This document shows positions 1 through 18,398 of a stretch of 64,000 bases of DNA, in pieces. A program made the translations under genes and the position numbers. The notes under the pieces are model-generated. The model searched no databases and had not been told where the DNA came from. It saw only the letters and a program-made list of their open reading frames with translations. The stretch covers positions 1,271,170 through 1,335,169 of the forward strand of contig CAVVJT010000007.1 in NCBI GenBank assembly GCA_963748625.1, written 5' to 3'. Source of the DNA: an uncultured Chloroflexia bacterium (GTDB lineage Bacteria; Chloroflexota; Limnocylindria; Limnocylindrales; CSP1-4). Position 1 is the first letter of the stretch. Every line of letters begins with the position of its first letter.

Positions 1-300
1 TCGTGGCGAACCGAAGGACGTACCACAGGGGTCCTGGGCCGTAGACGGAGCGCCCGATCTGTGACAGAACGGACTCGCCGCTCATCGCGGGCATCGCCCC
101 CGTGACCTGAGCGAGAAACGACGTGCCAAGGAAGAGGCTGGCGAGCAGGATCGTCACGATGAACATGGTCGTTCGCGCGTTCCGCCACTCGGGGGGCCTG
201 AACACGGGAACGCCGTTCGCGACAGCCTCGGTTCCCGTCATGGCCGTACACCCGTCCGCGAAGGCGCGCATGAGGAACAACAGGCCGAACGTCTCGACGG
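1..300 (-). pseudogene. APC-family (KimA/YdaO-like) permease fragment, 5'-truncated, runs off the window edge
   Basis: Manual minus-strand translation LFLMRAFADGCTAMTGTEAVANGVPVFRPPEWRNARTTM...SVLSQIGRSVYG resembles TM6-8 of this family; no N-terminal TM segments are seen upstream of ~300. Confidence 0.7.
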
Positions 301-416
301 GGGTGCGCCGACCGCGCCCGGGATCGCCGGGCTGCGGCAGCGCCCGGCACGGTGGAGACGACCGCTGGCGTCGTCACGGTCACGGTCGCCCGGCATGGCG
401 GCTGCCGGCCGGGTCG

Positions 417-694
417 CACAACCCGCTTGCGCGGGCACCTCCCGCGGCGCATCGTGTCCCACTTCGGGTCCACCCTCAACGGGGCAGTCGAGCAGTCCGA
501 GAAGGGAGGCGACGGCAAGGGCGGGAGCCCGGAGCGGGGCTGGTTCACTCCACGTCGGGGCGACGGAGCCCAGGCACGGGAGACAGGCGAGCACACCTCG
601 GCAAGGGCGGGGCGGTTTGGCGCGCCCGACAGGATTCGAACCTGCAGATGCCACCATTATCGTGCGGGTCCCGATCGCGCCGCGGCCGTGGTGA
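417..694. repeat. att-like repeat unit, copy 1 (diverged direct repeat of 2700-2981)
   Basis: Block 417-469 matches 2700-2752 at 44/53 nt; 617-694 matches 2904-2981 with 7 substitutions. Confidence 0.9.
618..645 (-). other. tRNA 3'-end fragment (T-arm, acceptor 3' strand, CCA), tRNA-Arg-like att core
   Basis: Reverse complement GCAGGTTCGAATCCTGTCGGGCGCGCCA; no D-arm or anticodon arm upstream. Confidence 0.85.
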
Positions 695-729
695 CCGGAC
701 CAGACCCAGGCGATGACGACCCTCCCGGA

Positions 730-1995
730 TCAGGCTCCTAGGGCGCCGACCGCCACCTGGAGGACGCCGTCGGGCCGTGTGAACGAGTACCCAGTCCCCG
801 TGATGACGACGAGCGCAACCGGCGGCCGCCCTGCCACCCGGTCGCGCAGGCGCAAGAGGCCTGCTGCCGCGGGATCGACGACGGAGGCGTGGGACCCGAG
901 CTTGACCTCGAAGGCGGCCCAGTCGCCGCCGGGCAGCTCGATCACGGCGTCCGCCTCGAGGCCCGCAGCGTCCCGGTAGTGGTAGATCCGGCCCCTGAGC
1001 GGCCCGGCGAGGACCCGCAGGTCGCGTACGACCAGGGATTCGAACAGCAGGCCCATCAGGTTGAGGTCGGCCAGCAGGGCGTCTGGGCCAGCCCCGAGGG
1101 CCGCCACCGCTAGTGACGGGTCGGCCAGGTGGCGGACGGGCGAGGCTCGCAGGCGGGTCCTGCTCCGCAGGCTGGGGCTCCATGCGGGGAGGTCATCGGT
1201 CAGCAGCAGGCGGTCGAGCGCCCCGAGGTAGGCACGGGCGGTCTCCACCTTCATCGAGCGGTCGGCGCCGGTGTCTGCCGCGAGGCCCTCCGCGCTCACA
1301 GGGCAGGCCGTGTTGCGGGCCAGCGAGGTCAGGAGCGCACGCACGCCCGCGGGATCCCGCCGCACACCATCGACACGCGGCACGTCGAGCCGGCAGACAT
1401 CCTCGAGATAGCCCTCGTTGAGGAGGGAGGCCTGCGCCGGAGTCAGGCCCAGGTTGCCCGGCCATCCGCCGACCACCAGCCGCTCCGCGAGGTCGCCGAC
1501 CCGGAGCCCGGGATCCGGCGCGCTCACCGGCTCGCCTGCGAGCACCCGTGCCAGCGAGACCGACCTCGTCGAGTGGCCACTCTCCACGAGTGCCATCGGG
1601 CGCATCCGGAGGCGGATGAAGCGGCCCGCACCCGAATGCCGCCGCGCGTCGTCCCGGGGCACCGACGAGCCGGTGAGCACGAACTGGCCCGGCGCCCGGC
1701 GATCGTCGACCTCGTGGCGCACCAGGTTCCAGAGGTCCGGCACCTCCTGCCACTCGTCGATGAGGCGCGGCGTCGCGCCGGCGAGCACGAGGGCTGGGTC
1801 GACGGCGAACGCCTGTTGGGCGGCGGGCGTGTCCATGCGGATCTCGCTGGTCGCCGCCTGGCGGGCGGTCTCCGTCTTCCCGCAGGCCCGGGGTCCCTCG
1901 ATGACGACGGCTCCAGCCGCTCCGAGTGTCTCGTGGAGCTGGGCGTCTATCACCCGCTGCCGGTACTCGTGGAGGGGCGGATCAGGGGTCGTCAC
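730..1995 (-). CDS. AAA_14 ATPase with C-terminal DUF4143 / PD-(D/E)XK-like domain
   Basis: Walker A GPRACGKT, Walker B LIDEWQ, LTGSS, GGWP, FESLV, EADAVIE...AFEVK; GTG start at 1995 chosen by family N-terminus. Confidence 0.85.
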   Translation of the reverse strand: MTTPDPPLHEYRQRVIDAQLHETLGAAGAVVIEGPRACGKTETARQAATSEIRMDTPAAQQAFAVDPALVLAGATPRLIDEWQEVPDLWNLVRHEVDDRRAPGQFVLTGSSVPRDDARRHSGAGRFIRLRMRPMALVESGHSTRSVSLARVLAGEPVSAPDPGLRVGDLAERLVVGGWPGNLGLTPAQASLLNEGYLEDVCRLDVPRVDGVRRDPAGVRALLTSLARNTACPVSAEGLAADTGADRSMKVETARAYLGALDRLLLTDDLPAWSPSLRSRTRLRASPVRHLADPSLAVAALGAGPDALLADLNLMGLLFESLVVRDLRVLAGPLRGRIYHYRDAAGLEADAVIELPGGDWAAFEVKLGSHASVVDPAAAGLLRLRDRVAGRPPVALVVITGTGYSFTRPDGVLQVAVGALGA

Positions 1996-2371
1996 GTGCC
2001 CATTGTCGAGGCCAGCCGCCGTTGCGTCAATCCCAAGGGATCGGCTTGCAGATCCAACGGGGGGTTGCCTTGCAGTGTTGACAGGGGGTTGCGGGCCCAC
2101 GTTCGCGCGGGCTTGCGCTGGCCGCGGAGGTGCGACAACCGGTCGGCAAGGCGGGCCAGCCGGAGGCATCGGGCTCGTAATGAACAAATCTGCGCGAATC
2201 CGTTAGCAGCGATCTCCCTAATGAACGGTCTTGACGACGGGACCCCTGCGAGATGGCGGGAGCGGGACCTGCCCGTTCGCCGCCGACGCGGTGCCCTTCG
2301 CGCATCGTGATCGAGGCCTGCATGGCACCGCACCCCAGCGGCTGCCCGTCGGTCCGCACGAGGAGCGACAG

Positions 2372-2542
2372 ATGCAGGAAGACCGCATCGAGGCCGACCC
2401 GCCGACGGGCGACCAGCCTGCCACTCCGGGCGGCAGCGACCGGCTCATCGCCGCCCCTGCGGCCGTGATCCATGACGCGATGGCAGCCGACGATGCCGCC
2501 GGGCGGGACCTGCCGCTGTCGGGCGAGGAGGACGAGGACTGA
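2372..2542 (+). CDS. small acidic hypothetical protein (56 aa)
   Basis: GAGGAG RBS before ATG 2372; composition unlike shadow ORFs. Confidence 0.35.
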   Translation: MQEDRIEADPPTGDQPATPGGSDRLIAAPAAVIHDAMAADDAAGRDLPLSGEEDED

Positions 2543-2699
2543 CGCCACGACGACCACGCCTCGGATCAGGGGAGCGCCCGGCTCGCCTCAGTCGTCTGAA
2601 GACTGCGCAATGCGCCCGCGATCACGCTCGTCCGCGACGACCAGCGGCCAGTCCCAGAGTCCCGCCTCGGCGATACGGGCCTTGTCGCCCACAACGACA

Positions 2700-2981
2700 C
2701 ACAACTCGCTTGCTCGGACATTCCCCGCAGCGCATCGTGTCTCACGTCGGGTGACACCGGCAGGGAAGTCAAGCACAGGGAGTAGGGAGGCAACCGAAGA
2801 GCAGGTGCCCGGGCCAGGGATGGTCGCCACTGCTGGACGCCAACGGGCTACAGAGCCGGGACGGTAAGAGAGCACACGAGACCGAGGGGAGAGGCGGGGT
2901 GGTTTGGCGCGCCCGACAGGAGTCGAACCTGCAGATGCCACTATTTTCGTGAAGGTCCCGATTGCGCCGCGCCCGTGGTGA
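2700..2981. repeat. att-like repeat unit, copy 2
   Basis: Homologous to 417-694; similarity ends at the TGA at 2979-2981. Confidence 0.9.
2905..2932 (-). other. tRNA 3'-end fragment, tRNA-Arg-like att core (second copy)
   Basis: Reverse complement GCAGGTTCGACTCCTGTCGGGCGCGCCA. Confidence 0.85.
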
Positions 2982-3452
2982 TCATCCTCGTGATGGATCC
3001 CACGGAGCGCGGCACTCCTGTGTGCGGGCTTCGCGATGCTCAAGACCGGTCGCAGCCCTGACTGACCAACGGCCCCCCACTCGAGCGACTTCCGAGGCGC
3101 GGCACCTTGCCTTCAATCGCGCGCGCAGCCTTGTGGCGAGCGCGGCCCGTCGCCCTGTGGGTCAGGAGAGTGGATCGCGATTGAGTGGTCGTCATCGCAC
3201 AGACGGTGGCAGGCGCTTCGCCGATGGACAACCGCGATGCGTGCCGAGGTGTGCGAGATACAGCGAGAACCCCGCTGGCCGGCTTGCGGTCCAGTTCGCG
3301 CCTTCCTGCCGCGGGTAATCCCAGTAGGGCGCTAGCCTCGCCTCGGTCCCGACCGCTATCCCCCCAGCGGCCGGGAACGTTGCGTATCGCTCAGAGCTCC
3401 AGGCCGAGAGCCCGTTGCCGGTCGGTGCCAAGGTCTCGGGTCTGAGGTCCGG

Positions 3453-4256
3453 TCACCACCTGCGGTCAGGGTAGCCGCGTCGCTTCTTCTGAGCAGGGAT
3501 GGCAGCCGCGTATGCGCGAATGCCGCTCCATGCAGCGTGATACCTGTCAGCGTCCTCGGCGAGCCGCCCCTCGATCCACTCCTCAAGCGCTTTGACGGGC
3601 AGGAGGACCCGCTTGCCGATGCGCAGGCTCGGGATCGTGCCCGCAGCAGCAAGCGACCCGACGGTGGAGGTGGAGAGCCCGAGCACTCGGGAGGCGTCGG
3701 CGACCGAGATCAGCAGTGGCTCCATACCTACGGCGAAGCGCTCTTCTGCTGGCGCCACCACTTCAGGGCCCTCCCTTGACTTCGCTTGCGGCTCAGCCGG
3801 TGCGGACGGCGGTGGCTGTGCCCAAGGGTCGTCCAACTCGCGATGTTCTGGCCGCGAGACGTGGTAGCTCATCGCGACGGGGTCGATGAGCAGGGCGCAC
3901 CTCAGGCAGATCCGCTTCGGGGACGGAGCGTCCTCAGGCAACTGGCGGACGAGCCTCTCGATAGCGATGCCGACCTGGCGGGCCTCCACGCGGAGTGACG
4001 CGCCTCCCCCAAGGTTCGCGATCCCCACCCATACGTTGTCCGGACGCCGGAAGACACCGCTCTCGCCGTGCGCGAGGCCGAAGTGACGGCCCTCCGGATC
4101 GATTGGCCGGATCCGATCCGGCGAGATCGCCCGGGGTGCGATCACGCACTCCCTGTGCGCCTGGGAGTTGAGGTGCCGATCCCAGTCGCGCCACAGCCTC
4201 CACGTCACGACCACATCGCAAACGGCACAGAAACTCACGCGCTCGACCGCCGCCAT
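3453..4256 (-). CDS. excisionase-type HTH (HTH_17) protein with two N-terminal C2H2 zinc-finger-like motifs
   Basis: C-terminal PLLISVADASRVLGLSTSTVGSLAAAGTIPSLRIGKRVLLP; CAVC-x12-HLNSQAH and CLRC-x11-HVSRPEH; GAGGG RBS before ATG 4256. Confidence 0.75.
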   Translation of the reverse strand: MAAVERVSFCAVCDVVVTWRLWRDWDRHLNSQAHRECVIAPRAISPDRIRPIDPEGRHFGLAHGESGVFRRPDNVWVGIANLGGGASLRVEARQVGIAIERLVRQLPEDAPSPKRICLRCALLIDPVAMSYHVSRPEHRELDDPWAQPPPSAPAEPQAKSREGPEVVAPAEERFAVGMEPLLISVADASRVLGLSTSTVGSLAAAGTIPSLRIGKRVLLPVKALEEWIEGRLAEDADRYHAAWSGIRAYAAAIPAQKKRRGYPDRRW

Positions 4257-4391
4257 ACCCTCGATTGTGGAGCCAGTGGGGGTCGATGTAACGGCGATTC
4301 CGCGGCTGTTCATCGTGGTGACGGTGACGATGCCCTCCTGCCGCCTGCCCGCCGGTCGATCGCGTGGAGGGCAGCATGGCAACCTTGCGTT

Positions 4392-4913
4392 GTGAAGTGG
4401 CGACGTTCGATTACCGGCCCTCGGCTGCCTGAGCAAGTGCGCCAGCACGCCCCCATCCCGGAGGTCGTCGCTGCTCGACTGCTCCGGTATGACGGCGACC
4501 GGCCCCTATACCTGGATCTGCTCCAGTTTGGGAGCGGGCCTGTGGGAGTCATGGAGGAGGACTACCCATACTGGGTCATCCGGGATGCCGAAGGTCGCGT
4601 GGTGGGTGGCGCGAAGGTGATGCGCATGCCGGCTGGTCACCCGGTGTCGCTCGACGTCGCCATCGCGCCGGACCGTCAAGGCCTTGGGTGGGCGACCGCC
4701 CTCTACGATGCGTTGACGGCGCGTGGGATCGACGTCGAGGCAGGCTCATCAGCTTCGCTCGCCCACGGGACGATGACCCTCGACGGCTACCTCTTCATGC
4801 GAGCTCGGCGTCTGCGGACCGACCCGGACGCCGAGGCCCAGATGGTCGCCGAGGCCAACGTTTGCCCGATGTGCGGTCCCTTGGACGAGCCCAGGGCCCA
4901 GGCGGACGAGTAG
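4392..4913 (+). CDS. GNAT-family acetyltransferase-like protein
   Basis: Motif A VAIAPDRQGLGWATALY; start uncertain. Confidence 0.6.
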   Translation: MKWRRSITGPRLPEQVRQHAPIPEVVAARLLRYDGDRPLYLDLLQFGSGPVGVMEEDYPYWVIRDAEGRVVGGAKVMRMPAGHPVSLDVAIAPDRQGLGWATALYDALTARGIDVEAGSSASLAHGTMTLDGYLFMRARRLRTDPDAEAQMVAEANVCPMCGPLDEPRAQADE

Positions 4914-4947
4914 CGGGCTGGGCGAAGGGGCGTTGACCCGCCGGGCG

Positions 4948-6180
4948 TCAGTAGTCCTCCGCGAGTCGATCCAGGTCGGCGACGCTCAGGATCTCCGAGT
5001 GCAGGACGCTTCGCGGATCGTCCGACAGCGGGAGGCCGAAATACAGCACGCCGATGTTCCGCGTCACCATCTTCCGGAGGCGGCTCGCCGCGATGCTGGC
5101 GCCGAAGGGACCTTTCGCGTTCATTCGCGCGGTGGACACCACGGAGAGATGGCCTGCGGCGCGATTGCTGAACGCCCACCGCCACTCGGGGATGCCTCGG
5201 ATGTAGATGTCCCCGGGCAGCACGCCGATGACGACGCTGTTCGGGTCGGCGGCTTCCAGATAGAGGGATGGCAGCAGCCCGATCAGGTCTTCGGCAGCCA
5301 TCTGGCGGCGCACCGGGTCCACCAGGCTCGCCGGGACGGGAGCGGGCGGGAGGATAGCGACATCGAGGTCGTACCGGACCTTGTAGAAGTCGGCCAGGTC
5401 CTGCAGGTCCGCTGCGGCAAGCCCACCGAGCGGGGCGAGGTAGACGGTCCTGCCCGGCGGGTGGATCGGGACGACCGCTGCGCGACCTCCCGGCGGCAGA
5501 CTCGTGATGCCTGTCGCGACACCGCCGATGCCGATCACGATGCACGCTGCTGCCGCGACGACCCCAACCCAGAATCCGCCTCGGACGATCGCTGCGCGCT
5601 TCTTCCGGCGCTCAGCAGCCGGCCCTCGGAGGGTGTCCCAGTTGGCGGCGAGTAGGGCGACTCGTTCCTGCCAGGGCTGCCAGTCATCGGCCACAGCCCC
5701 GGATCGCTGGCGGTCCGCCCACTCGACATCACCTTCCGCGAGCCCATCTGCAAGCGAGGCCCAGGCGCTACTGGGCGCTGGGGCCGTTACCGTATGGCGC
5801 CAGCGAGCCTTGCCGGCAGCGGACTCTTCACTGCCCCAGGCGGCAGCAATGAAGGGCTGACGCGCCAGGATGATGGCCTCATCGAATGTCCACGCCGGCA
5901 GCCTGTCGCCGAGAAGCAGGCGATCCTCCAGCGACTTCGGGAGACCCAGCCCGAACGTCACCGCGCCGGCGATGAGAAACGCGCCGACGATGATGGCCAC
6001 GTCGTCGGCGTCCGTGATGAACGTCGAGTCGAGGCCGGACCTCGCGATCGTCACGGGGACGAGCAGCACTAGGAGCCCTGCGAAGACCGCCCATAGGGCG
6101 TCACGCCTGCGGACCGCAGCGGCCGCGAACGCCCCGGCAAGCGCCAAGACGCCAACGATCCCGCCGAGCGTCATGAGCAC
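4948..6180 (-). CDS. membrane protein with C-terminal archaemetzincin (M54)-like domain, zinc motif degenerate
   Basis: Four hydrophobic segments; VYLAPLG, RRQMAAEDL, VVSTARM, RLRKMVTRNIGVLYFGL, SVADLD resemble the M54 fold. Confidence 0.6.
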   Translation of the reverse strand: MLMTLGGIVGVLALAGAFAAAAVRRRDALWAVFAGLLVLLVPVTIARSGLDSTFITDADDVAIIVGAFLIAGAVTFGLGLPKSLEDRLLLGDRLPAWTFDEAIILARQPFIAAAWGSEESAAGKARWRHTVTAPAPSSAWASLADGLAEGDVEWADRQRSGAVADDWQPWQERVALLAANWDTLRGPAAERRKKRAAIVRGGFWVGVVAAAACIVIGIGGVATGITSLPPGGRAAVVPIHPPGRTVYLAPLGGLAAADLQDLADFYKVRYDLDVAILPPAPVPASLVDPVRRQMAAEDLIGLLPSLYLEAADPNSVVIGVLPGDIYIRGIPEWRWAFSNRAAGHLSVVSTARMNAKGPFGASIAASRLRKMVTRNIGVLYFGLPLSDDPRSVLHSEILSVADLDRLAEDY

Positions 6181-7355: not shown

Positions 7356-9358
7356 TTGGGGGACTCAGGACTCAACAACCACGCAGGGCTGATCTGGTCG
7401 ATCGCCGACCTGCTCCGCGGTGACTACAAGCAGTCCGAGTACGGCCGCGTCATCCTGCCGCTCGTCGTGCTGCGCCGGCTCGACTGCGTGCTCGAGCCCA
7501 CCAAGGCCCAGGTCCAGAAGCGCCTGGAGACCGCGATCGGTCGAGAACGTCGGCGTCCTGCTCCGCGCGATCACCGGGCTCGATGTCTACAACACGAGCC
7601 GCCTCACCCTGCGGACGATCCTCGCCGACCCGGCCCAGGTCGCCGGCAACCTGCGCGCCTGGATCGCGGGCTTCGACCCCGACACCCGCGACGTCATCGA
7701 GAAGTTCGACTTCGACGCCCAGATCGGGCGGCTCGACCGGGCCAAGATCCTGTACCTCGTGCTGTCGCAAGGTGACCGAGGTCGACCTCCACCCGGACAC
7801 CGTCAGCAACACCGAGATGGGCTACCTCTACGAGGAGCTCGTCCGCCGCTTCTCCGAGCTCTCCAACGAGACCGCGGGCGAGCACTTCACGCCGCGCGAG
7901 GTCATCCGCCTGATGGTGGACCTCCTGTTCATCGAGGACGACGAGGCCCTGCGCACCCCGGGCATCGTGCGCACCCTGCTCGACCCCGCGTGCGGCACGG
8001 GCGGCATGCTCTCGGTGGCGGCCGACCACCTGCATGCGCTCAACCCGGGCGCCCACCTCGAGGCGTACGGCCAGGAGCTCAACGCCGAGACGTACGCCGT
8101 CGGCCGCTCGGACATGATGCTCAAGGGCCAGGACGGCGCGGAACATCCGCCTCGGCAACAGCTTCAGCGAGGACCAGCTTCAAGGGCGAGCGCTTCGACT
8201 ACTGCCTCGCCAATCCGCCGTTCGGGGTGGAGTGGAAGAAGGTCGAGCGCGAGGTCCGCGACGAGGCCGACAAGCTCGGCTTCAAGGGCCGCTTCGGCGC
8301 CGGCACTCCCGCGCATCAACGACGGCTCGTTCCTGTTCCTCCAGCACATGATCAGCAAGCTGAAGGCACCGGCCGAGGGCGGTGGCCGCCTGGCCATCGT
8401 CTTCAACGGCTCGCCGCTGTTCACCGGCGGCGCGGGCAGCGGCGAGAGCGAGATCCGGCGCTGGATCATCGAGAACGACTGGCTCGAGGGCATCGTCGCC
8501 CTGCCCGACCAGCTCTTCTACAACACCGGCATCAGCACCTACTTCTGGATCGTCACCAACCGCAAGCGCCCCGAGCGCCGGGGCCTTGTCCAGCTGGTGG
8601 ACGCGCGCGAGCTCTTCACCAAGATGCGCAAGTCCCTGGGCGAGAAGCGCAAGGCGATCAGCGACGACCAGATCGGCGAGATCGCGCGCCTCTACGGCGA
8701 CTTCACCGAGGGCGAGCGCGTCAAGATCCTGCCCAACGAGGCCTTCGGCTTCCAGCGGATCACGGTCGAGCGGCCGCTGCGCAAGCGCTACTCCGTGCCG
8801 GCCGACTTCAGGACTGTCGCGACGCAGGCACCCGGGTGGGCGGAGCTCAACTGGCACGACCAGCAGACCCTGCTGATGGCGCTGCACACGATCAACGGTA
8901 TCGAGACCTCCGACCGCGGCGAGGTCGCGACGGCAACCGAGATGATCGAGATGTTCTCCGGTGAGGCTGCCGATGTCATGTGGCAGGTGATCACCCGACC
9001 GGACAATGAGGCGCCGATCATCACCGACCGCAAGGGCACGCCGAAGGCTGATGCGAGCCTCCGTGACAACGAGAACGTGCAGCTGCCGTGCCCGGTCGAG
9101 GCGTTCGACGCCGACCCGACCGAACGGCTGGCATCCCGTTCGTATCGGGATGCCGTCGACGCCTACGTGACGGCAGAGGTCCACCCGTACGTGCCAGATG
9201 CCTGGGTGGATCACGCCAAGACGAAGGTCGGCTACGAGATCGCGCTCACCCGCCAGTTCTACCGCTACATGCCGCCTCGCCCCCTCGAGGAGATCGACGC
9301 CGAGATCCGCGCACTCGAGGAGGAGATCCAGCGACTCCTACGCGAGGTCACGACGTGA
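7356..9358 (+). CDS. hsdM: type I R-M methyltransferase subunit (several frameshifts)
   Basis: [56 protein letters not shown] spread over three frames; GGAGG RBS plus TTG start. Confidence 0.92.
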
Positions 9359-10593
9359 GGTGGGTGCGACTTCGTCACGTGGCTCGCGTCAATCCACCAT
9401 CTCCCGCCTTCGACAGGCTCGAGGCAGACCGCGCTGTCACGTTCCTGCCTCTGGAAGCGGTATGGCCCGGCGGCCGACTGGATACATCAAGAACTCGCCT
9501 GAAGAGCGAGGTTGTAACCGGGTTCACTCGATTCGAGCCCGGCGACATCTTGGTTCCCAAGATCACTCCCACATTCCAGGCCGATCGAACCGCGGTCGCT
9601 ATCGGGCTGTTGGGGCCTGCCGGAGCTGGAACCACCGAGTTGCACGTGGTTCGCCCGGGAGGCGAGATCGACCCCAAGTACCTTCTGTACTCGCTGTCTT
9701 CACGACACTTCCTGCGTGATGGCGAGGCAGCGATGTACGGGGTTGCGGGACAGCGGCGGGTGCCCGACGACTACATCCGAGACTTCCGCCTTGCGCTGCC
9801 TTCTCTCGCAACGCAACGGAATGTCGTTGCGTACTTGGACGCTGAGACCACGCGCCTCGACGGTCTAGTCACGGCCGAGCGCATGCGGATCGCGCTCTCC
9901 ATCGATCGAGTTCAGACCGTTCGCGAGTCGCTGGTACTGGGGCGCACCCCGCGGGAGGTGCTCAACGACCCAGACGGCCCATTGGGGCCCGCTCCCGCTG
10001 GCTGGTCCATGCTTCGGAACAAGATCTTCCTCCGGGAGGTCGCACAGTTGTCCAGCACTGGCCTCGAGGAGCTCCTCTCGGTGTCACATCTGACGGGAGT
10101 GACTCCCCGGTCGGAGAAGGACGTCACCATGTTTCTCGCGGAGAGCAACGCTGGATACAAGCTCGTTGAGCCGACGGATCTCGTCGTGAACACGATGTGG
10201 GCTTGGATGGGAGCCCTTGGCGTGTCGGCCTATGCCGGGATCGTGAGTCCTGCTTATGCGGTATATCGCTTCTTCGGACATGCGGTGCTGCCGCAGTACT
10301 TCGACGCTCTCGCCCGGTCCAGGGCCTACGTGGCTGAGATGACACGCTATTCGTCTGGCGTGTGGACGTCGCGATTGCGGATCTATCCAGATGCATTCCT
10401 CGCTCTGAGGAGCTTGGTTCCGCCCGTCCACGAACAGCGCCGAATTATCCACGCCCTTGATGAGCTCAGCGTGGAGCAGGAGCGACTGATCTCGCTCTTG
10501 ACACGTGCCGTCGACCTCCTCCTCGAGCGCCGCCAGGCGCTCATCACCGCCGCCGTGACAGGCCAGCTCGACATCCCAGGAGTCGCCGCGTGA
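9355..10593 (+). CDS. hsdS: type I R-M specificity subunit
   Basis: Two TRDs with conserved LPSLATQ..VVAYLD and PPVHEQRRI, terminal ERRQALITAAVTGQLD; GTGA overlap with hsdM. Confidence 0.92.
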   Translation: MRWVRLRHVARVNPPSPAFDRLEADRAVTFLPLEAVWPGGRLDTSRTRLKSEVVTGFTRFEPGDILVPKITPTFQADRTAVAIGLLGPAGAGTTELHVVRPGGEIDPKYLLYSLSSRHFLRDGEAAMYGVAGQRRVPDDYIRDFRLALPSLATQRNVVAYLDAETTRLDGLVTAERMRIALSIDRVQTVRESLVLGRTPREVLNDPDGPLGPAPAGWSMLRNKIFLREVAQLSSTGLEELLSVSHLTGVTPRSEKDVTMFLAESNAGYKLVEPTDLVVNTMWAWMGALGVSAYAGIVSPAYAVYRFFGHAVLPQYFDALARSRAYVAEMTRYSSGVWTSRLRIYPDAFLALRSLVPPVHEQRRIIHALDELSVEQERLISLLTRAVDLLLERRQALITAAVTGQLDIPGVAA

Positions 10594-13578
10594 AGGCAGA
10601 CGAGCGCGGGTTCGAGGACGCCATCACGGCGTCGCTCGTCGAGGCCGGTGGGTACAGTGTTTGCAAGTGGGGCACCAGGGCCGAGTGGGCGGCCGACTTC
10701 GACCGCGCTCGCGCGCTCGACACCGCCGAGCTGTTCGTGTTCCTTGCCGAGACGCAACCCAAGGCATGGGAGCGCCTGGTGGCCGTCCACGGCGGCGAGG
10801 CCGGTGCACGGGCCCAGTTCGCAGACCGCCTCGCGAAGCAGATCGACGAGCGCGGCACGGTCGACGTCCTGCGCCACGGCGTCAACGACCACGGGATCGA
10901 GGTGCGCCTCGCGTACTTCCGGCCGGCGCACGGCCTGACCCCCGAGCTCACGCACCTGTACGAGGCCAACCGGCTCACCGTCACCCGCCAGCTGCCCGTA
11001 CGAGCCCGCCGGCACCAAGACCCTCGATCTCGCCCTGTTCGTCAACGGCATCCCGGTCGCCACGGCCGAGCTCAAGAACCCACTCACCCACCAGACCGTC
11101 GAGCACGCGAAGCACCAGTACCGGACCGACCGCAACCCCGCGAACCGGACCTTCCGCAATGCCCTCGTCCACTTCGCGGTCGACCCCGACACCGTCGAGA
11201 TGACGACGCGGCTGGATGGGCCCAAGACCCGGTTCCTGCCCTTCAACCGGGGCAACGCCGGCGGACGGGGCAACCCGCCCGACCCGACGGGGCACCGCAC
11301 CCGGTACCTGTGGGAGGAGCTCTGGGCGCGCGACGCCTGGCTCGACATCCTCGCCCGCTTCATCCACGTCATCCCGGGCGAAGGCGCCACCAAGCAGGCG
11401 AAGCTGCGCGCGGGCACGGTCATCTTCCCCCGCTACCACCAGTGGGACGCCGTCCGCCGGCTGGAGGCCACGGCGCGCGCCGAGGGTCCGGGCCACAGCT
11501 ACCTCGTCCAGCACTCCGCGGGCTCGGGCAAGAGCAACACGATCGCCTGGCTCGCGCACCGCCTGATGAGCCTCCACGGCGCCGATGACAGGCCCGTGTT
11601 CGACAAGGTGGTCGTCATCACTGACCGGGTGATCCTCGACCGCCAGCTCCAGGAGACGATCTACCAGTTCGAGCACGCGACGGGCGTCGTCGCCCGGATC
11701 GACCAGGACTCGGGCCAGCTCGCGGACATGCTCAAGGGCGAGCAGGGCCGGATCGTCATCACGACGCTCCAGAAGTTCCCGTTCATCCTCGACAAGGTCG
11801 CAGAGCTCGGGAAGCGGCGGTTCGCTGTCATCGTCGACGAGGCGCACTCCTCCCAGACCGGCGAGGCCGCCAAGGGCCTGCGTGAGGCGCTCGGGTCCGC
11901 GTCGGCGGAGGCCGCGCTCGCCGCCGCGGAGGTCGCTGACGCGAAGGACGCCCCGGCCGACCCGCAGGACGCGCTCGCAGCCTCGGTCGCCGCGCGCGGC
12001 CGCCAGCCCAACATGAGCTTCTTCGCCTTCACCGCGACCCCCAAGGCCCGCACCCTCGAGCTGTTCGGGCGCACCGACGCCGACGGCAACTACGCCCCCT
12101 TCCACCTCTACTCGATGCGCCAGGCGATCGAGGAGGGCTTCATCCTCGACGTGCTCGCCAACTACACGACGTACGCCGTGTACTGGAAGGTGGGCAAGGC
12201 GGTCGAGACGGACCCCGAGTACGACAGCCGGCGCGCGAAGGTCTCGATCGCGCGCTGGGCCTCGCTCCACCCGCACAACCTCGCCCAGAAGGCCGAGCTC
12301 GTCGTCGAGCACTCCCGCGACCACACCCGCCACAAGATCGGCGGGAAGGGCAAGGCGATGGTCGTGACGTCCTCGCGCCTCCACGCCGTCCGCTACAAGC
12401 AGGCGATCGACACCTACATCGCGTCGAAGGGGTACGCGGACACGAAGGCGCTGGTCGCCTTCTCGGGCACCGTCGGCGACGGCGGGCTCGACTGGACCGA
12501 GGCGTCCATGAACGGCGTCCCCGAGAGCCAGACCGCCGAGACGTTCGCCGGCCCCGACTACGGCGTGCTCGTGGTCGCCGAGAAGTTCCAGACCGGCTAC
12601 GACCAGCCGCTCCTGCACACGATGTTCGTGGACAAGGTGCTCACCGGCCTCAACGCCGTCCAGACCCTGTCGCGGCTCAATCGGATCCACCCCGACAAGA
12701 CCGACACGTTCGTCCTCGACTTCCGCAACGAGGCGGAGGCGATCACCGAGGCCTTCGAGCCCTGGTGCGAGGCGACGGTCGCGGTCCCCACCGACCCCAA
12801 CACCCTCCACGACATGGCGGACCGGCTCCTCGGGCTCCAGGTCATCGACATGACCGAGGCGAAGGCGATCGCGGCACTCATCGCGGACCGCACCGTCAAG
12901 GCGGGCGACCACGGCACGATCTACGCGCTGCTGGCGGCACCCGTCGAGCGGTTCAAGGCCATGGAGCCCGCGGACCAGCACGAGGTCCGCGATGCGCTCG
13001 ACGCCTACGTGCGCGCCTACGCGTTCCTCAGCCAGGTGGTCGAGTTCGGCGACGTCGGCCTCGAGGCGGTCTACCTTGCCTCACGCGCTCTCGCGGCGGA
13101 GCTGCCGTCCGACGGCGGCGGGGTGCTCGACCTCGGTGCCGAGGTGCAGCTCACGCACCTGCGCATCGAGAAGACCTCGGAGGGCTCGATCACCCCCGAC
13201 GGCGGCTACGGCCCGATCGAGTCGCTGTACTCAGGGCAGGGCAGGCAGGTCGCCGAGGAGAAGGCGCACCTGTCCACGATCATCGAGGTCCTCAACGAGC
13301 GCTTCGGCACCGTGCTGGGCACCGCGGACCAGCTCTTCTTCGACCAGCTCGAGGAGACCTGGATGGCCGACGACCACCTGGTCGCCCAGGCGCAGGCCAA
13401 CCCGATCGAGAACTTCCGCCTCGTGTTCCAGCCCCAGTTCCTGAAGAGCATCGTGGGCCGGATGGACGACAACGAGGACATCTTCAAGCGCGTCGTGGAC
13501 GACCCGGACTTCCAGACCGCGGTGATGAACCACTACTTGGCCCGGGTCTTCGAGCGGGCACGTGCCAACGTCGGTTGA
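10590..13578 (+). CDS. hsdR: type I R-M restriction subunit (frameshift near 11,000)
   Basis: LFVNGIPVATAELKN, QHSAGSGKS, IVDEAHSSQ, FTATPK, KFQTGYDQP, QTLSRLNR. Confidence 0.93.
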
Positions 13579-13677
13579 GGCCTGCATGAGCACCGAGTTC
13601 GCGCGACTAGCTGAGCGCCCTTCTGGGGCCAGTGGCGAGTCACCTAGCGAGCGCAGGAACAGCGCCGGCGGAGGGTC

Positions 13678-14898
13678 ATGGTGAGCACGCCGCCCCATCT
13701 CTTGGCGCAGGAGCACGGAGTGCTCGGGGAGGCTCGTGTTCGCGCCTTCCTGCTGGAACGCTTCTGGGTGCACACGCGATCCATCGACCTTGATGGCGCT
13801 GACTTCCTCATCCAGGCCCGAGAACCAGCCGAACGTGACCCGAATGCACGCGTTCGCCTCGGTCGGGTGCAGGTGAAATTCGTTCAGAACGATCGAACGC
13901 CTATCTACATCCCCAAAGCCTACGTCTTCGACCGGCTCGGCCTCCCCAGCAAGCTGTTCTTCTTGGTGATCTCAACTGGGACAGGAAGGAGCGCTCAACT
14001 CTTCCTGCTCGACGGCGAGCAGATAGCGCGGTGCTCTGCGCCGAAGACCCCTCCACCGGACCGGATCCGGATCGGGATGCGAGCGGTCTTGGAGAGTCAG
14101 GAGTTCGTGGTCACGGACTCCCGCGTGGCCCTTGAGCGCATGGAACAGGCTCTGCGGACGGTCGATCGCGACCGGTACGCGGCGTTCCTCGGCGCCTCAT
14201 TCCCGGAGCGGGGGCGCCTCAAGCCTGAGTATCTCCACCCGCTCCATGTAGACGAGGATCGGCTCGACAGGGCACTGGCCCGAATCCAGCGCGAGTTCGG
14301 CTCCATGGCGTGGGAGCTTGAGGCGGCTGCCGAGCTCCTCAGGCGCGCTGAGGCATCAGGCGACCTCCTCGAGATCGAGTCGATCTTGGACCAGGCAGAA
14401 GTCGCCGACCACATCTTGCCGGTTGGCTACGGAGACTTTCGGGTTGGGTTCAGCTCGAATCCTGGCAGGCTGGACGATCTGTTCGATGAGGTGCGCCGAT
14501 ATCGAGCTCGCGTCGAGCGGCTGGCAGGAGCCCACCTCCTGGCGCCGTTCGCAACCCTCGTTGGCGAGATCGAGGCCTCGCTCATCCGGGAGTTGCGCCG
14601 CTGCGGGAGCGCAGCGGCCGGCGAGGCTCTCGGCTGCAAGATCGAGTTCGACGGACAGACGTTCACCTTTCGATCGATGTCCTTCCATGAGGAGGTCACG
14701 GCACCGCTTGGTGGATCCTTCACCCTAAGCTCGCCCGGCCTAGTAGTGGGCCGCTTCCGAGTACCCGAGTACCCGCAGGCATCTCGGCCCAATCAGATCT
14801 CGAAGGAGACCACCTGGGAGGAATTCCTGGCCGTTGAGGCAGGCGAACTCGCGATCTGGATCGGTAAGGTCGTGGAAACAGCGCGGTTCGGCGACTAG
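13678..14898 (+). CDS. DUF4365-like PD-(D/E)XK nuclease domain protein
   Basis: GEARVRAFL...DLDGADFLIQ...VQVK N-terminal nuclease motif. Confidence 0.65.
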   Translation: MVSTPPHLLAQEHGVLGEARVRAFLLERFWVHTRSIDLDGADFLIQAREPAERDPNARVRLGRVQVKFVQNDRTPIYIPKAYVFDRLGLPSKLFFLVISTGTGRSAQLFLLDGEQIARCSAPKTPPPDRIRIGMRAVLESQEFVVTDSRVALERMEQALRTVDRDRYAAFLGASFPERGRLKPEYLHPLHVDEDRLDRALARIQREFGSMAWELEAAAELLRRAEASGDLLEIESILDQAEVADHILPVGYGDFRVGFSSNPGRLDDLFDEVRRYRARVERLAGAHLLAPFATLVGEIEASLIRELRRCGSAAAGEALGCKIEFDGQTFTFRSMSFHEEVTAPLGGSFTLSSPGLVVGRFRVPEYPQASRPNQISKETTWEEFLAVEAGELAIWIGKVVETARFGD

Positions 14899-14973
14899 CC
14901 AGCGGACGCCCCCGAAGGGTCGCTCGGTGTCTATCTTTGCCGCAATGCCACCTGCGTCATAGACTGAAGATAG

Positions 14974-16659
14974 ATGGCCCAGAAGCTACCGACTCCCGGA
15001 ACTCTGACCGCCGCCCGACTTCGGCGGCTGATCCGCGCGGGCGAGAACGACCTTGTCGAGTTCAAGGGCGAGCGCGCCTCCATCGCTGACATCGTCGATG
15101 CTGTCGTGTGCTTTGCGAACGGTGACGGCGGCCTCGTCCTCTGGGGCGTTGGCGACGACGGGGCGATCGAGGGCACCAACCTGCGCGATCCGCAGGCGCT
15201 CCGCAAGGGCGTGTTCAACGGGACGTCGCCGTCCCAGCTTGTGGAGGTCCAGGAACTCCTCGTCGATGCCAAGAAGGTCATCGGCGCCTGGGTCGAGCAC
15301 TCGCCGGTCCTCGTGTCCACCACGAGAGGCTCGTACACGCAGCGCGTCGGTGCCGACTGTCTGCCGATGACGCCAGACCGGCTTGTGGTTCGCCAGATCG
15401 ACACGCGTGCGCTGGATGTCTCGTCGGCCGTAACGCCTGTCGATCTGGACGGGATCGATCTTGTCGAGGTCGAGAGGTTTCGCCGGCTGCTGCCGTCGGA
15501 CGAGGCCGGAGAAGGACTGCGCCGACTGGAGATGCCGGCCCTGCTTGCCGCGATCGGGGCCACCGCGAAGGTTCGCGGCCGGACGGATGCCGTAACTGTT
15601 GCCGGACTCCTCATCTTCGGTCGCGAGGAGGAAATCCGAGCGGTCATCCCTCAGCACCAAGTGGTCTACGTTCGCTCGCCCGAGGGAACAACGGACTACG
15701 AGCGTCGCGTGGTTTCCTCCCAGCCGATCCTGCGGCTCCTCGAGCAGCTGAGTCTGGAGATTTCGGCCGCTGGCAAGTCCCGCACACTGCGCGTGGGTCC
15801 TCGCGACCTGGAACTCCCGGACTACCCAGAGCGGGTCCTGCGCGAAGCGATCATCAATGCAGTGGCGCACCGGCACTACACGCTTCCCGGCGACATCGTC
15901 ATCCGCCAGACGTCCGTTTCGCTCGAGATCGAGAATCCCGGAGGCTTCCCGGAGGGTATTGACCCCGACAGCGTCATCCAGCACGCTCCCGTACATCGGA
16001 ATCGCCTGCTCTGCGAGCTGCTGGATCGCGTCCGCGTCATGGAGCGCTCTGGCCTCGGCGTGGATCGCATCTTCGAGGATCAGCTCAAGTTCGGCAAGGT
16101 TCCTCCGACGTATGAAGCCGACCGCAACTCCGTCCGGCTGCGTCTTGATGCACGCGAGTTCGACGAGTCGTTCGCACGCATGGTGTTCAACGAGGAGCAG
16201 GCAGGAAGGCGATGGCGCGTCGAAGACCTCCTTGTCCTCTCGCACCTGCGGCGCATGGGACCATCAGATCGGGCGGTTCTCGCGAGGGTAATGCAGCGAC
16301 CGGAGCGCGATGCGCAGGACATCCTCACGAGTTTGCTGGGCGAGCTTGTCGTCCGATTTGGCGCCGGGCCGGGCACCAAGTACGTGCTCAGCGCCCAAGC
16401 CCAGGCGAGCCTCGGCGCGGAGGGTGCGTATACGCGCGAGCGCGGGCTCGCGAAGGAGACGCAGCGGCGCCTAGTGCTTCAACATGCCATCGAGTTCGGC
16501 CGTGTGGACAACAAGGCGGTCAGGGAGATGCTCCAGATATCGGCCCGCGACGCGACGCAGCTCCTCCTCGCGCTCGAGGCACGCGGCCAGTTAGTGATGC
16601 GCGGAGCGAGGCGATGGGCCTACTACGAGCCCGTGGACCAGCAGACGCTTCCTCTATGA
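14974..16659 (+). CDS. AlbA_2/Schlafen + HATPase_c_4 + wHTH protein
   Basis: GENDLVEFK, FANGDGGLVLWGVGD, LREAIINAVAHRHY, IENPGG, RNRLL, MERSGLG. Confidence 0.88.
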   Translation: MAQKLPTPGTLTAARLRRLIRAGENDLVEFKGERASIADIVDAVVCFANGDGGLVLWGVGDDGAIEGTNLRDPQALRKGVFNGTSPSQLVEVQELLVDAKKVIGAWVEHSPVLVSTTRGSYTQRVGADCLPMTPDRLVVRQIDTRALDVSSAVTPVDLDGIDLVEVERFRRLLPSDEAGEGLRRLEMPALLAAIGATAKVRGRTDAVTVAGLLIFGREEEIRAVIPQHQVVYVRSPEGTTDYERRVVSSQPILRLLEQLSLEISAAGKSRTLRVGPRDLELPDYPERVLREAIINAVAHRHYTLPGDIVIRQTSVSLEIENPGGFPEGIDPDSVIQHAPVHRNRLLCELLDRVRVMERSGLGVDRIFEDQLKFGKVPPTYEADRNSVRLRLDAREFDESFARMVFNEEQAGRRWRVEDLLVLSHLRRMGPSDRAVLARVMQRPERDAQDILTSLLGELVVRFGAGPGTKYVLSAQAQASLGAEGAYTRERGLAKETQRRLVLQHAIEFGRVDNKAVREMLQISARDATQLLLALEARGQLVMRGARRWAYYEPVDQQTLPL

Positions 16660-17084
16660 CATGGCTCTAACTTGGCGCGACATAGACCGAAGATAGGCTC
16701 GAGTCGCGGTACGGCCGACACTCGAGGTACAGATCGCGGTCCGGGGAACTCGTATGCCAGGCGACGCGCCAAATTGGGGGATCCTGTGTATGGACCTCCT
16801 TGGTTCGATGTGGCACGATGCGGTCCGCTAGGGAGTCTGGCCATGGCTCTGAGCGCTGAGCCCCATCCCGGCGCACCAGGGGACACACATCGGATGTCCA
16901 CGGAACATCGTCCGATCACAGCGACGACGCGGGTGTCGATCCTTCCGTTCGGCCGGAGTGAACTACGGATCACCGAGAGTCCGATGGCTCCCGTCAAGGA
17001 CTCCCCCGAGATGATCCGCCGCCTCCCTGAGGTGACGTTGAAGACACATTTGGTGCGGCCGGCCGTGCGGGCAATCCGACAGGG

Positions 17085-18269
17085 CTAGATTCCGGACCAG
17101 CCCTCGACGGCAGACCAGCCCTGACTATTGACGCGCCCCACGATGCCGCTCGTTGGCGCTTGTTTTCGGATCTCCTCGTTCACGAGACCCGGGATTGCCT
17201 GCTGAGCCTGGCCTAGTAGCGCCTGAAGAATCTCGCCAGTCTGAGCCGGGATCGACGCTGGGTCCAGTCCGGGCGGGAGGTTCAAGCTCAGCTGCAGATT
17301 GAGATTCAGCGACGGCATGGACCGGGTTCGCGAGACAGTCATCTGCCCACCGATCCTGTGTGCCATGTTGACGGACTCGATTGCCCCAAGGATCACGTCG
17401 GCCCTCGCCTCATCGCCGTCCCCGAGAAGGGCCAGAGGGTCGAGCGGCTCGCGAGTAGAACACAGCTCCTCGTAAGCCTCCAGCAGCGACCAGACAATTG
17501 TCTCGGTCTCGTCGTCGGGCCGAACGATCTTCAGGCCGATCGCCTCGGCCTCACGGCGGCCGATTGCGTGCCCGTGCTGATAGGTCTTCTCCGCAAGCAT
17601 CTCGATCACGGATGCAATCGTCTGCTCTTCAAGCCGCTCGCCCTCGGCGCGCGACGTGAGGAGTTTCCTGGCGACATCTCGGATATGCGAGTGCGCGCGA
17701 TTGATCTGACCGAGGATCACCGGGTCGACGCGCTGGGCAAGGGCTGCGAATGGAGCGGCGAGGGCCGCCTGGTCCGAGAGGCCGACACGCTCCCGGATCA
17801 ATCGGAGGTAGGACATGATGTCCTCTACCGCGACCTGATCCTGGACTGGCGTCTCGCCTTCCCGGCCACGTTGAATGCCGAGTTGCGGATCGATTGGGCC
17901 AAGTTCGCCCTTCGGCCCCATGACTATCTCGTCAGCCCCGATAGCGATCATGGTCGCTGCGCTCATCGCTTTGTACGGCACGATCACCGAGAACCTCTTC
18001 GCGTACTCTCGGATCATGGTGACCATCCGCCACGGGACGTCCGTGAGTCCGCCGGTGGAGTACAGGAAGAGGTCAACCGCCTCGCACTGGCCCACGGTGC
18101 GCAGGTGGTCGTACAGCGGACGGACGGCGTCCTCGGCGACCTGCGCCTGCGCGCCCTGCCGGTCACTGAGCACGTAGGTGACGACGTGACTGCCCCGACG
18201 CGCCCCAAGTTCCCGCAGCAGACGGCGACGATTCGCGGCCCCTGCATCGACCGGTACCAAAGCCCGCAT
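17085..18269 (-). CDS. ClpP-class (SDH/SppA-like) serine protease
   Basis: DLFLYSTGG, AMSAATMIAIGADEIVMG, LGPIDPQ, HGHAIGRREA. Confidence 0.85.
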   Translation of the reverse strand: MRALVPVDAGAANRRRLLRELGARRGSHVVTYVLSDRQGAQAQVAEDAVRPLYDHLRTVGQCEAVDLFLYSTGGLTDVPWRMVTMIREYAKRFSVIVPYKAMSAATMIAIGADEIVMGPKGELGPIDPQLGIQRGREGETPVQDQVAVEDIMSYLRLIRERVGLSDQAALAAPFAALAQRVDPVILGQINRAHSHIRDVARKLLTSRAEGERLEEQTIASVIEMLAEKTYQHGHAIGRREAEAIGLKIVRPDDETETIVWSLLEAYEELCSTREPLDPLALLGDGDEARADVILGAIESVNMAHRIGGQMTVSRTRSMPSLNLNLQLSLNLPPGLDPASIPAQTGEILQALLGQAQQAIPGLVNEEIRKQAPTSGIVGRVNSQGWSAVEGWSGI

Positions 18270-18398
18270 ATCCCCACCTACTAACACTGAGTGACCGTCA
18301 GGTCGCGGATCACCACGACCCGCAGCTCGCTCAGTCTCACCCACGATGATGGCATACGTAGGCGAGCCTTATCCGCAAGGAAACGTACACAATTCATC

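Follow-up and report, generated by a model that had tools for sequence, protein, structure and literature searches.

Direct repeats with a tRNA-Arg core in a Chloroflexota contig as probable relics of serine-integrase elements with attP inside the integrase gene

The window studied here, which spans the final 64 kb of contig C7 in an assembly from an uncultured Chloroflexia bacterium (4.6 Mb with 71% G+C in 10 contigs, rated 7.7% contaminated), contains two direct repeats, copy A and copy B, in which the 3' end of a tRNA-Arg(CCG), read antisense, continues in frame into a short tail that ends at a TGA. It is probable that these are relic distal junctions of elements integrated into tRNA-Arg(CCG) by serine integrases that have attP within the 3'-terminal codons of their own gene (int). 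The 49 nt that lie 3' of the tRNA core appear to descend from the detached C-terminal tail of such an integrase, because the integrase enters the core in the same frame, its free forms continue into a homologous tail that is under selection, and relics are fused in frame. The copies in the window themselves are most likely untranslated.

The two units (417-694 and 2700-2981) lie 2287 nt apart and are, over their whole length of ~280 nt, ~75% identical (blastn E 1e-44, far beyond chance). The likeness is unevenly spread: a repeat search found 91% identity over the 89 nt of 606-694 and 2893-2981 and 83% over the left 53 nt (417-469 and 2700-2752), with a weaker match in the middle of the units. 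The same search reported no terminal inverted repeats of the 278-nt unit, which was also considered by eye. The parts of the two copies are:

417-616, forward strand: left flank of copy A ("flank iii"), a conserved non-coding stretch of ~200 nt, ~72-83% identical to 2700-2903
616-645, reverse strand: core of copy A, the last 28-30 nt of tRNA-Arg(CCG) (3' half of the T-arm, 3' strand of the acceptor, CCA)
646-694, forward strand: tail of copy A, type 1, 16 codons and TGA, DATIIVRVPIAPRPW and stop; putative integrase-tail relic on the P' side of attP
2700-2903, forward strand: left flank of copy B (flank iii)
2903-2932, reverse strand: core of copy B, a 3' fragment of tRNA-Arg(CCG) with one mismatch, G for T at 2922
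2933-2981, forward strand: tail of copy B, putative type 1 relic, DATIFVKVPIAPRPW and stop

Both copies read in frame across the core, as LARPTGFEPADATIIVRVPIAPRPW and stop (617-694) and as LARPTGVEPADATIFVKVPIAPRPW and stop (2904-2981), in agreement with the original prediction made from the letters of this stretch. The differences 3' of the core are exactly those it had listed, three synonymous (ACC/ACT, ATC/ATT, CGG/CGC) and two that change the residue (ATC/TTC, I/F; CGG/AAG, R/K), with the likeness stopping at the TGA; one more, TTC/GTC (F/V), falls within the core. Counted over 15 codons, this amounts to 3.5 synonymous and 2.5 non-synonymous changes and a ratio of non-synonymous to synonymous differences (pN/pS) of 0.26, and since the changes are too few, the synonymous bias between A and B alone is not significant.

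The junctions had been described as tRNA-Arg junctions, which holds for the core, whereas the window itself contains no tRNA gene according to ARAGORN, and positions 1-6000 have no match to an Rfam family at E<=1. Positions 616-645 are 100% identical over 30 nt, and positions 2903-2932 are 96.7% identical over 30 nt, to C8:28849-28878, the 3' end of an intact tRNA-Arg(CCG) gene (c28851-28926) on another contig, C8; the 49 nt 3' of the core in both copies are not tRNA. On the strand opposite this tRNA gene, a 515-aa open reading frame (ORF) runs into the tRNA and ends in ...RPRKSMALARPTGFEPATFGSGGRRSIH and stop. It reads through the antisense tRNA as ...KSMALARPTGFEPATFGSGGRRSIH and stop, a frame that it shares with LARPTGFEP in the window, so that a recombinase running into the antisense tRNA-Arg core, a check named beforehand, was indeed found. 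The ORF is intact, and its protein matches PF00239 (Resolvase) at 6.1e-11 and PF07508 (Recombinase) weakly, at 19.3 bits against a cut-off of 21.1.

This integrase belongs to a large clade. A match to it at E<=1e-10 is present in 49 of the 70 genomes of the genus, and at the genus loci returned the ORF reads ...AYAHGLALALPEKV(E/A)(L/M)ARPTGFEPATFGSGGRRSI(H/R) and stop through the antisense tRNA-Arg. Relatives were collected more widely with a 13-member alignment (A2), as a scan of viral contigs with the single integrase protein gave no match and an alignment query was needed; this resulted in 24 viral-contig loci and 80 genome loci, the latter being the best 80 of 231 relatives and coming mostly from metagenome-assembled genomes of Chloroflexota or Candidatus Limnocylindrales. 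When tRNA overlap at the ORF ends was called with ARAGORN, the end was overlapped by a tRNA in 54/80 genome loci vs 2/24 viral-contig loci. The 54 overlapping tRNAs are 36 Arg-CCG, 7 Arg-TCG, 4 Arg-TCT, 1 Arg-CCT, 3 Pro-CGG and one each of Asp, Lys and Val; among the remaining genome loci, 6 run off the contig, 7 have the tail without a tRNA and 13 are other cases. The integrated-form genes are intact in 22 of the 23 tested. Distant members (L025, L042, L044, L129, L151, L155, L157, L164 and L166) end in other antisense tRNAs (Arg-TCG, Pro-CGG, Lys, Val, Asp), and therefore the overlap is a property of the clade and not of one target.

The enzyme behind these junctions is a large serine recombinase, because of its Pfam Resolvase and Recombinase domains and its fold matches to the SPbeta, phiC31 and Bxb1 integrases. 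Resolvase PF00239 matches 22/22 free-form members, PF07508 matches 16/22 at E<=0.01 and Zn_ribbon_recom only 1/22; the residues R-E-S-T..Q are invariant in alignments A2-A4, and of the zinc-ribbon residues C292, C294 and C317 are invariant and H313 nearly so. The suggestion of an SSV1-type integrase did not survive, since the enzyme is of the Resolvase type, and the four matches to the tyrosine integrase family (PF00589) in the genome are neither in or near the window nor at the C8 tRNA.

The part of the gene that is relevant to the window is best seen in the free forms, of which 22 loci were chosen by eye from 41 without an overlapping tRNA and without an ORF running off the contig. At their core there is no tRNA, and the ORF reads on into a conserved tail of 22-35 aa (...RIPIEGRDEWLAAAR.SA and stop); all 22 ORFs are intact, 505-533 aa long, and continue for 22-35 codons past the tRNA-like core. 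The tails align as protein (...RIPIEGR.EW..AAR..SA), most end in (S/T)A, and in the Arg-targeting group the tail is ...ARPTGVGHALTTYRIPIEGRDEWLAAARVKSA and stop. Between free-form elements the tail is ~80% alike, and the likeness ends at the stop unless the next gene is common to both. Pairwise counts on the last 22 codons of four close genes (L134, L066, L130 and L140) gave a pN/pS of 0.20 in frame 0, next to 0.14 for the gene body; four of the other frames gave 1.4-1.7 and the antisense frame that shares the wobble position gave 0.29. One further gene, L064, was left out as it is one codon shorter and was misaligned, and the 5-sequence run that includes it gave 0.64. The free-form tail is under purifying selection. 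When the tails of ten free-form integrases were searched against the genome of the window, only noise was returned.

The stop codon of the free-form gene is commonly part of a start codon. The tetranucleotide through the stop is ATGA, GTGA or TTGA in 16/22 free forms, CTGA in four, and in two the stop is TAG; a gene overlapping the integrase stop is seen, for example, at L134:4192-5421, L068:2449-2649, L081:2476-2694 and L071:4557-4766. Ten same-strand downstream ORFs were scanned and comprised one ParB_N + N6_N4 methylase, one HTH_17 protein (excisionase type), three small helix-turn-helix (HTH) proteins of the GerE type, two sigma-r4-like HTH proteins and three without a Pfam match. Since the downstream ORF starts inside the integrase stop, attP lies inside an int-X operon, and given this stop/start overlap integration would split an operon.

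An AlphaFold2 model of free-form L134 (alignment A3) has a mean predicted local distance difference test score (pLDDT) of 83.8, and its tail contains a strand (492-494) and a helix (500-508), with pLDDT of 88 and 79 for the blocks 491-500 and 501-510, respectively; the tRNA-like core stretch (483-488) falls below 50. In a Foldseek search with this model, the top nine Protein Data Bank matches were SPbeta, phiC31 and Bxb1 integrase-DNA complexes (E 6e-14 to 4e-11). The tRNA-encoded end (476-500) of a model of the integrated form L113 (alignment A4) has a pLDDT below 50. The predicted contrast between a structured free tail and a disordered tRNA-encoded tail is suggestive only, and soft, because the L113 model is weak overall (mean pLDDT 67.3) and its tail is invariant in the alignment.

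Comparison of attP, attB and attL narrows the site of exchange, as free-form, integrated-form and empty-site sequences have only TGGCGCGCCCGACAGGA in common. In the free forms TGGCGCGCCCGACAGGA lies in the dyad CCGAC-AGGA-GTCGG (in L064, CGCGCCCGACA-GG-TGTTGGGCGCG), and the crossover is therefore placed, with probability rather than certainty, at the central GG, which is 632-633 and 2919-2920 in the window; the predicted GG falls within ...CCCGACAGGA.... A half-site of a serine integrase is usually ~25 bp, which would end near 658 in the window, so most of the tail would lie outside the minimal attP.

We propose the following course of events. In the free circular element, attP is located within the final ~30-40 codons of int, where the codons ...ARPTG(F/V).. 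are the antisense of the tRNA acceptor and T-arm and contain the crossover, probably the GG at 632-633, and the ORF passes the core into the selected tail of 22-35 aa, which is predicted to be structured, with its stop overlapping the start of the next gene. Upon integration the body of the enzyme would become fused to the tRNA and acquire ...ATFGSGGRRSIH and stop as its C-terminus, and the former tail would stay behind, together with the genes downstream of it, at the distal end. Copies A and B would then be attR-type junctions, or junctions between tandem insertions, and the pieces in the window would be the core and tail of a short-tail lineage (...VPIAPRPW and stop) that travels with a DUF4143 ATPase and has become separated from any integrase. 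The earlier idea of an integrase C-terminus detached by integration thus stands as regards the frame, the homologous tails and the remnants, and needs correction in that only the last 22-35 codons are exchanged, and therefore the integrated gene stays whole rather than being broken.

Relic copies of core and tail in relatives were found by nhmmer with both window units as the query and were translated in register. Type 1, the type of the window (...ADATI(I/F)V(R/K)VPIAPRPW and stop), is represented by 18 rows from the genus and the window that passed the filter, of which two, L061 and L051, were on inspection not type 1. It shares the R(V/I)PI block and the W with the free-form integrase tails. 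Metagenome contigs were searched with an exact degenerate pattern of the type-1 tail, which matched 13 further contigs, none with a full integrase; the same pattern had 0 matches in viral contigs. Type 2 (...NIRIPIEGAD...A and stop) has 11 distinct copies in six lengths (28-34 codons), all in frame to a common GCN-NTGA end, and five other type-2 copies are frameshifted or diverged. Integrase C-terminal remnants precede type-1 copies in frame in L046, L045, L006, L180 and L176, one example of a remnant fused to core and tail being ...HGFALALPEKVELARPTGFEPADATSFVKVPIAPRPW and stop, and L185 keeps ~130 aa of integrase homology. By sequence, a remnant followed by core and tail is what junctions between tandem insertions would be expected to look like. 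A third, partial copy in the genome of the window (last 29 nt, 93%, TRVPIAPRPR and stop) is located at C7:1256562-1256590, 14.6 kb upstream of the window, without a recognisable tRNA core and between ordinary metabolic genes.

For the tail of the window's type, the claim of selection on the protein sequence is not borne out: whereas the free-form tails have a pN/pS of 0.20, type 1 gives 0.71 over 16 copies, with two other frames similar. Column variability over the 18 rows is 0.148, 0.226 and 0.207 for the first, second and third codon positions, i.e., without a third-position excess, and second positions account for the two columns that vary most (A/E/V and P/R/L). These values bear on the suggestion that the 25-codon frames are independent small genes with a TTG start, or that the unit forms a structured RNA resembling a tRNA. 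All 18 rows have the frame open and the minus strand bears a T-arm and a CCA end, as such a gene or RNA would have it, but the first codon is TTG in only 6/18 (otherwise CTG, ATG, GGA, ATT, AAA, ACG, TCG, CCG, GTT or GTG), the frame is no more conserved than others, ARAGORN and Rfam find no match, and RNAalifold on 23 type-1 tail units gives -4 kcal/mol with 0 compensatory pairs and a T-stem that decays in the copies. We consider this explanation extremely unlikely. For flank iii, RNAalifold had only four copies, too few sequences to judge structure.

What is conserved in type 1 looks more like DNA than like protein. The 10-mer GTCCCGATCG is invariant in 22/23 type-1 copies, third codon positions included, with the neighbouring columns varying; in the window it lies at 668-677 and 2955-2964 (GTCCCGATCG and GTCCCGATTG). 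Likewise, ...CCGTGGTGA is nearly invariant in the 23 copies, and the T-loop part of the core varies freely. This suggests the 10-mer as a candidate DNA-level site.

The single gene between A and B is:

730-2187, reverse strand: AAA_14 + DUF4143 ATPase, convergent with the tail (Pfam DUF4143 4.9e-30, AAA_14 5.6e-12)

Homologues of this ATPase (34-90% identity) adjoin tail copies in 14 of the 16 loci matched by tblastn, mostly in convergent orientation and with the stop 28-160 nt from the TGA of the tail. The order of type-1 tail and then ATPase is found in the window, G028, G030, G031, G006 and five metagenome contigs; examples in relatives are L045:12911-14251 and L187:5846-7210 and 4129-5415. 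In G028 the ATPase is 85% identical to that of the window and is likewise placed between two copies, within an array that reads integrase remnant and tail, ATPase, flank and tail, Fic-domain gene, flank iii, intact tRNA-Arg. This array (L045, G028:C17, 10386-15100) comprises a Fic cassette, an ATPase cassette and a PIN-like/antitoxin-like pair at the intact tRNA-Arg, with one core-and-tail unit between the Fic and ATPase cassettes, a second bounding the ATPase and the PIN-like pair beyond it, and has the appearance of defence or addiction genes arrayed as cassettes.

Such arrays raise the question of whether type-1 units are working att sites. Resident serine integrases would act on them in trans and so move small cassettes that lack an integrase (DUF4143 ATPase, Fic), and the tail would be retained at the DNA level, either as an extension of the attP arm or as a site for an accessory protein, and not as protein. 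The location of the type-1 tail 28-160 nt from ATPase genes of 45-90% identity, the layout of copy, ATPase and copy in both the window (2.29 kb) and G028 (1.95 kb), the G028 array itself, the invariant 10-mer with its indifference to codon position together with the pN/pS of 0.71, and the lack of an ATPase beside the tail in 24 viral loci (tblastn) all speak for it. Public sequencing runs contained only parts of the stretch (shares <=0.25), in short, mixed contigs with mainly the tRNA core; in one of them, X1, a metagenome contig joins 2105 (5' region of the ATPase) back to 647 (start of the tail) at 85% likeness, a weak hint of a circular or tandem form that could be present in a relative. 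Against mobility of this kind, the right ends vary (flank class ii in G028, iii in the window), although a mobile unit should have both ends fixed; the 24.8-kb element of G031, which carries Prim-Pol and an integrase pseudogene next to the tRNA and is bounded at the other end by the ATPase and a type-1 tail, fits the decay of larger elements; the motif is 35-60 nt from the proposed crossover and so beyond a ~25-bp half-site; and no excision product was seen. The recurring units fit either repeated left-end remnants of one element lineage or integrase-less cassettes with an att site kept as DNA, and we regard live cassettes as possible, although rather unlikely.

Another option is that A or B is a live distal junction of the element of the C8 integrase, so that excision would rejoin the tail in the window to that enzyme. 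It draws on the window ending at the contig end, with the far side of the array unassembled, on A and B being the sole copies of core and tail in this genome, and on the intact C8 integrase ORF. The C8 integrase, however, lies mid-contig with 27 kb of normal-GC genes to its left (a two-component system, a CAP-like protein), the free-form relative nearest to it (L017/L090, 69% identity) differs from the window in its tail (...SGTQSGFQSILIEGAEEWEAGHLQSA and stop), and the genes to the right of copy B are of defence type or ordinary, followed by a low-GC block without phage genes. This makes a live junction very improbable. No support for joining the end of C7 to the start of C8 was obtained from GC content.

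The reading of A and B as relic junctions of attP-in-int elements also has evidence to answer, in addition to the weakness of the L113 model. The relics are not contiguous with a tRNA, as in this assembly the tRNA and the integrase are mid-contig on C8, and in G006, a relative assembled as one contig, ~960 kb separates the tail copies from the tRNA. The left flanks of A and B differ from the flank of empty tRNA sites and are not integrase remnants either; a profile search in six frames found no significant integrase homology in them. A type-1 tail has never been found on an intact integrase (0/33 with a full integrase upstream, from 18 filter rows, two further copies and 13 metagenome contigs), so its translation as an integrase end comes from homology only. 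The conservation of the 10-mer and of CCGTGGTGA exceeds plain decay and is not protein-like, and A and B are 91% alike in core and tail vs ~72% in the flank.

As for the flank, flank iii occurs at the same position in metagenome contigs L183, L184, L186 and L187 (~71% identity), and a stretch related to it is directly downstream of the intact tRNA-Arg in G028. In six relatives, synteny at tRNA-Arg sites without an integrase was too little conserved in the flanks to place the former tRNA junction of the array in the window; in G020, an ATPase homologue is near the tRNA in the opposite orientation.

To the right of copy B the window continues with an HTH_17 protein, type I restriction-modification, Schlafen/AlbA_2 and SDH-type protease genes, then normal-GC genes and then the low-GC block. 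The genes concerned, the last four in a defence-island-like run (7583-18344), are:

3453-4448, reverse strand: context gene right of copy B, 331 aa, with a C-terminal HTH_17 (excisionase/MerR-type; Pfam HTH_17 3.3e-10)
7583-9358: N6_Mtase
11200-13578: type I restriction R subunit
14974-16659: Schlafen/AlbA_2 + HATPase_c_4 protein
17085-18344: SDH/ClpP-like protease

The low-GC block (29000-64000) is 35 kb long with ~63% G+C vs 71% in the genome, and carries ShlB/POTRA, ExbD, rhamnosidase and CHAT-domain genes; no phage genes were found in it in the gene scan. The first 8 kb of contig C7 have ~50% G+C. Because of the 7.7% contamination of the assembly, both regions could be foreign DNA or a chimeric join.

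The arrangement in this family appears, from the sequences compared, to be a variant of the theme of attP inside a gene. SSV1-type integrases of Sulfolobus spindle-shaped viruses are tyrosine recombinases with attP inside int. The likeness to them consists of attP in the integrase ORF, a tRNA target and a coding piece of the int C-terminus left at the far junction, while here the enzyme is a bacterial large serine recombinase (in Chloroflexota-type genomes and viral contigs), attP is placed so close to the 3' end that the exchange covers just 22-35 codons, and the integrated gene remains full length with a tRNA-antisense end. With phiC31, Bxb1, A118/LI and SPbeta the clade shares Resolvase and Recombinase domains, zinc-ribbon Cys/His residues, a long coiled coil and the fold, as well as a core that is predicted here to be short and dyad-symmetric; in classical large serine integrases attP is generally intergenic and attB generally lies in protein genes. 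In mycobacteriophages such as BPs, attP is within the 3' end of the repressor gene and C-terminal tags are involved, Int also being C-terminally tagged, according to Broussard and Hatfull (PMC3694055). That system resembles the present one in having attP in the 3' end of a phage gene, C-termini that differ between viral and prophage forms and, as a proposal in the present case, integration as a switch, but there the repressor is split, Int is a tyrosine recombinase and the part removed is a degradation tag, as shown by experiment (PMC3694055). Here, the gene that spans attP is the integrase and not a repressor, so immunity of the mycobacteriophage type does not apply; the serine integrase itself would be split, and the piece it loses has a predicted structure.

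The window also resembles tandem accretion at tRNA genes in having a tRNA 3' end repeated directly in arrays, with defence-type cargo and remnants of elements in between; it differs in that the repeats extend 49 nt beyond the tRNA into what appears to be former integrase coding sequence, and in that the units are linked to one cargo family, the DUF4143 ATPase. In an earlier survey (PMC3218068), serine-recombinase integration into tRNA genes is described as rare, with eight Mycobacterium elements in tRNA-Leu, and tandem actinomycete integrative and conjugative elements are noted at tRNA-Arg and tRNA-Lys. A full-text literature search, with most subscription journals outside its scope, brought up no description of a serine integrase ORF that spans attP and overlaps a tRNA.

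Taken alone, the window is a modest result, two repeats that are old scars; the wider interest is in the clade. A regulatory or switch function of the tail exchange may be suggested by the sequences. In its broadest form, which we put forward only tentatively, a widespread serine-integrase clade of Chloroflexota genomes and viral contigs would sense its own integration state through the tail swap and the operon break, and short-tail units may be att sites of integrase-less defence cassettes. Integration would swap a structured, selected module of 22-35 aa for a disordered tRNA-antisense tail, and the 4-nt stop/start coupling to a downstream HTH, ParB-methylase or excisionase-like gene would be broken, so that this gene ends up at the opposite prophage end; the enzyme's two isoforms would then differ in directionality or stability.

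One-way insertion of large DNA is done mainly with large serine integrases, and the control of their direction is an active question. If the proposal is true, the clade would provide a testable case of state-dependent control, in which the C-terminus and the downstream operon are rewired by the enzyme's own recombination, with a natural pair of isoforms open to comparison on attP x attB and attL x attR. tRNA genes are targeted by these serine integrases on a large scale, as against "rare" in the earlier survey (PMC3218068). For genome annotation, the arrangement would account for the recurrence of tRNA fragments and short conserved ORFs in defence-island-like arrays, and would mean that the C-terminus of an integrase is not the same in the prophage as in the free form.

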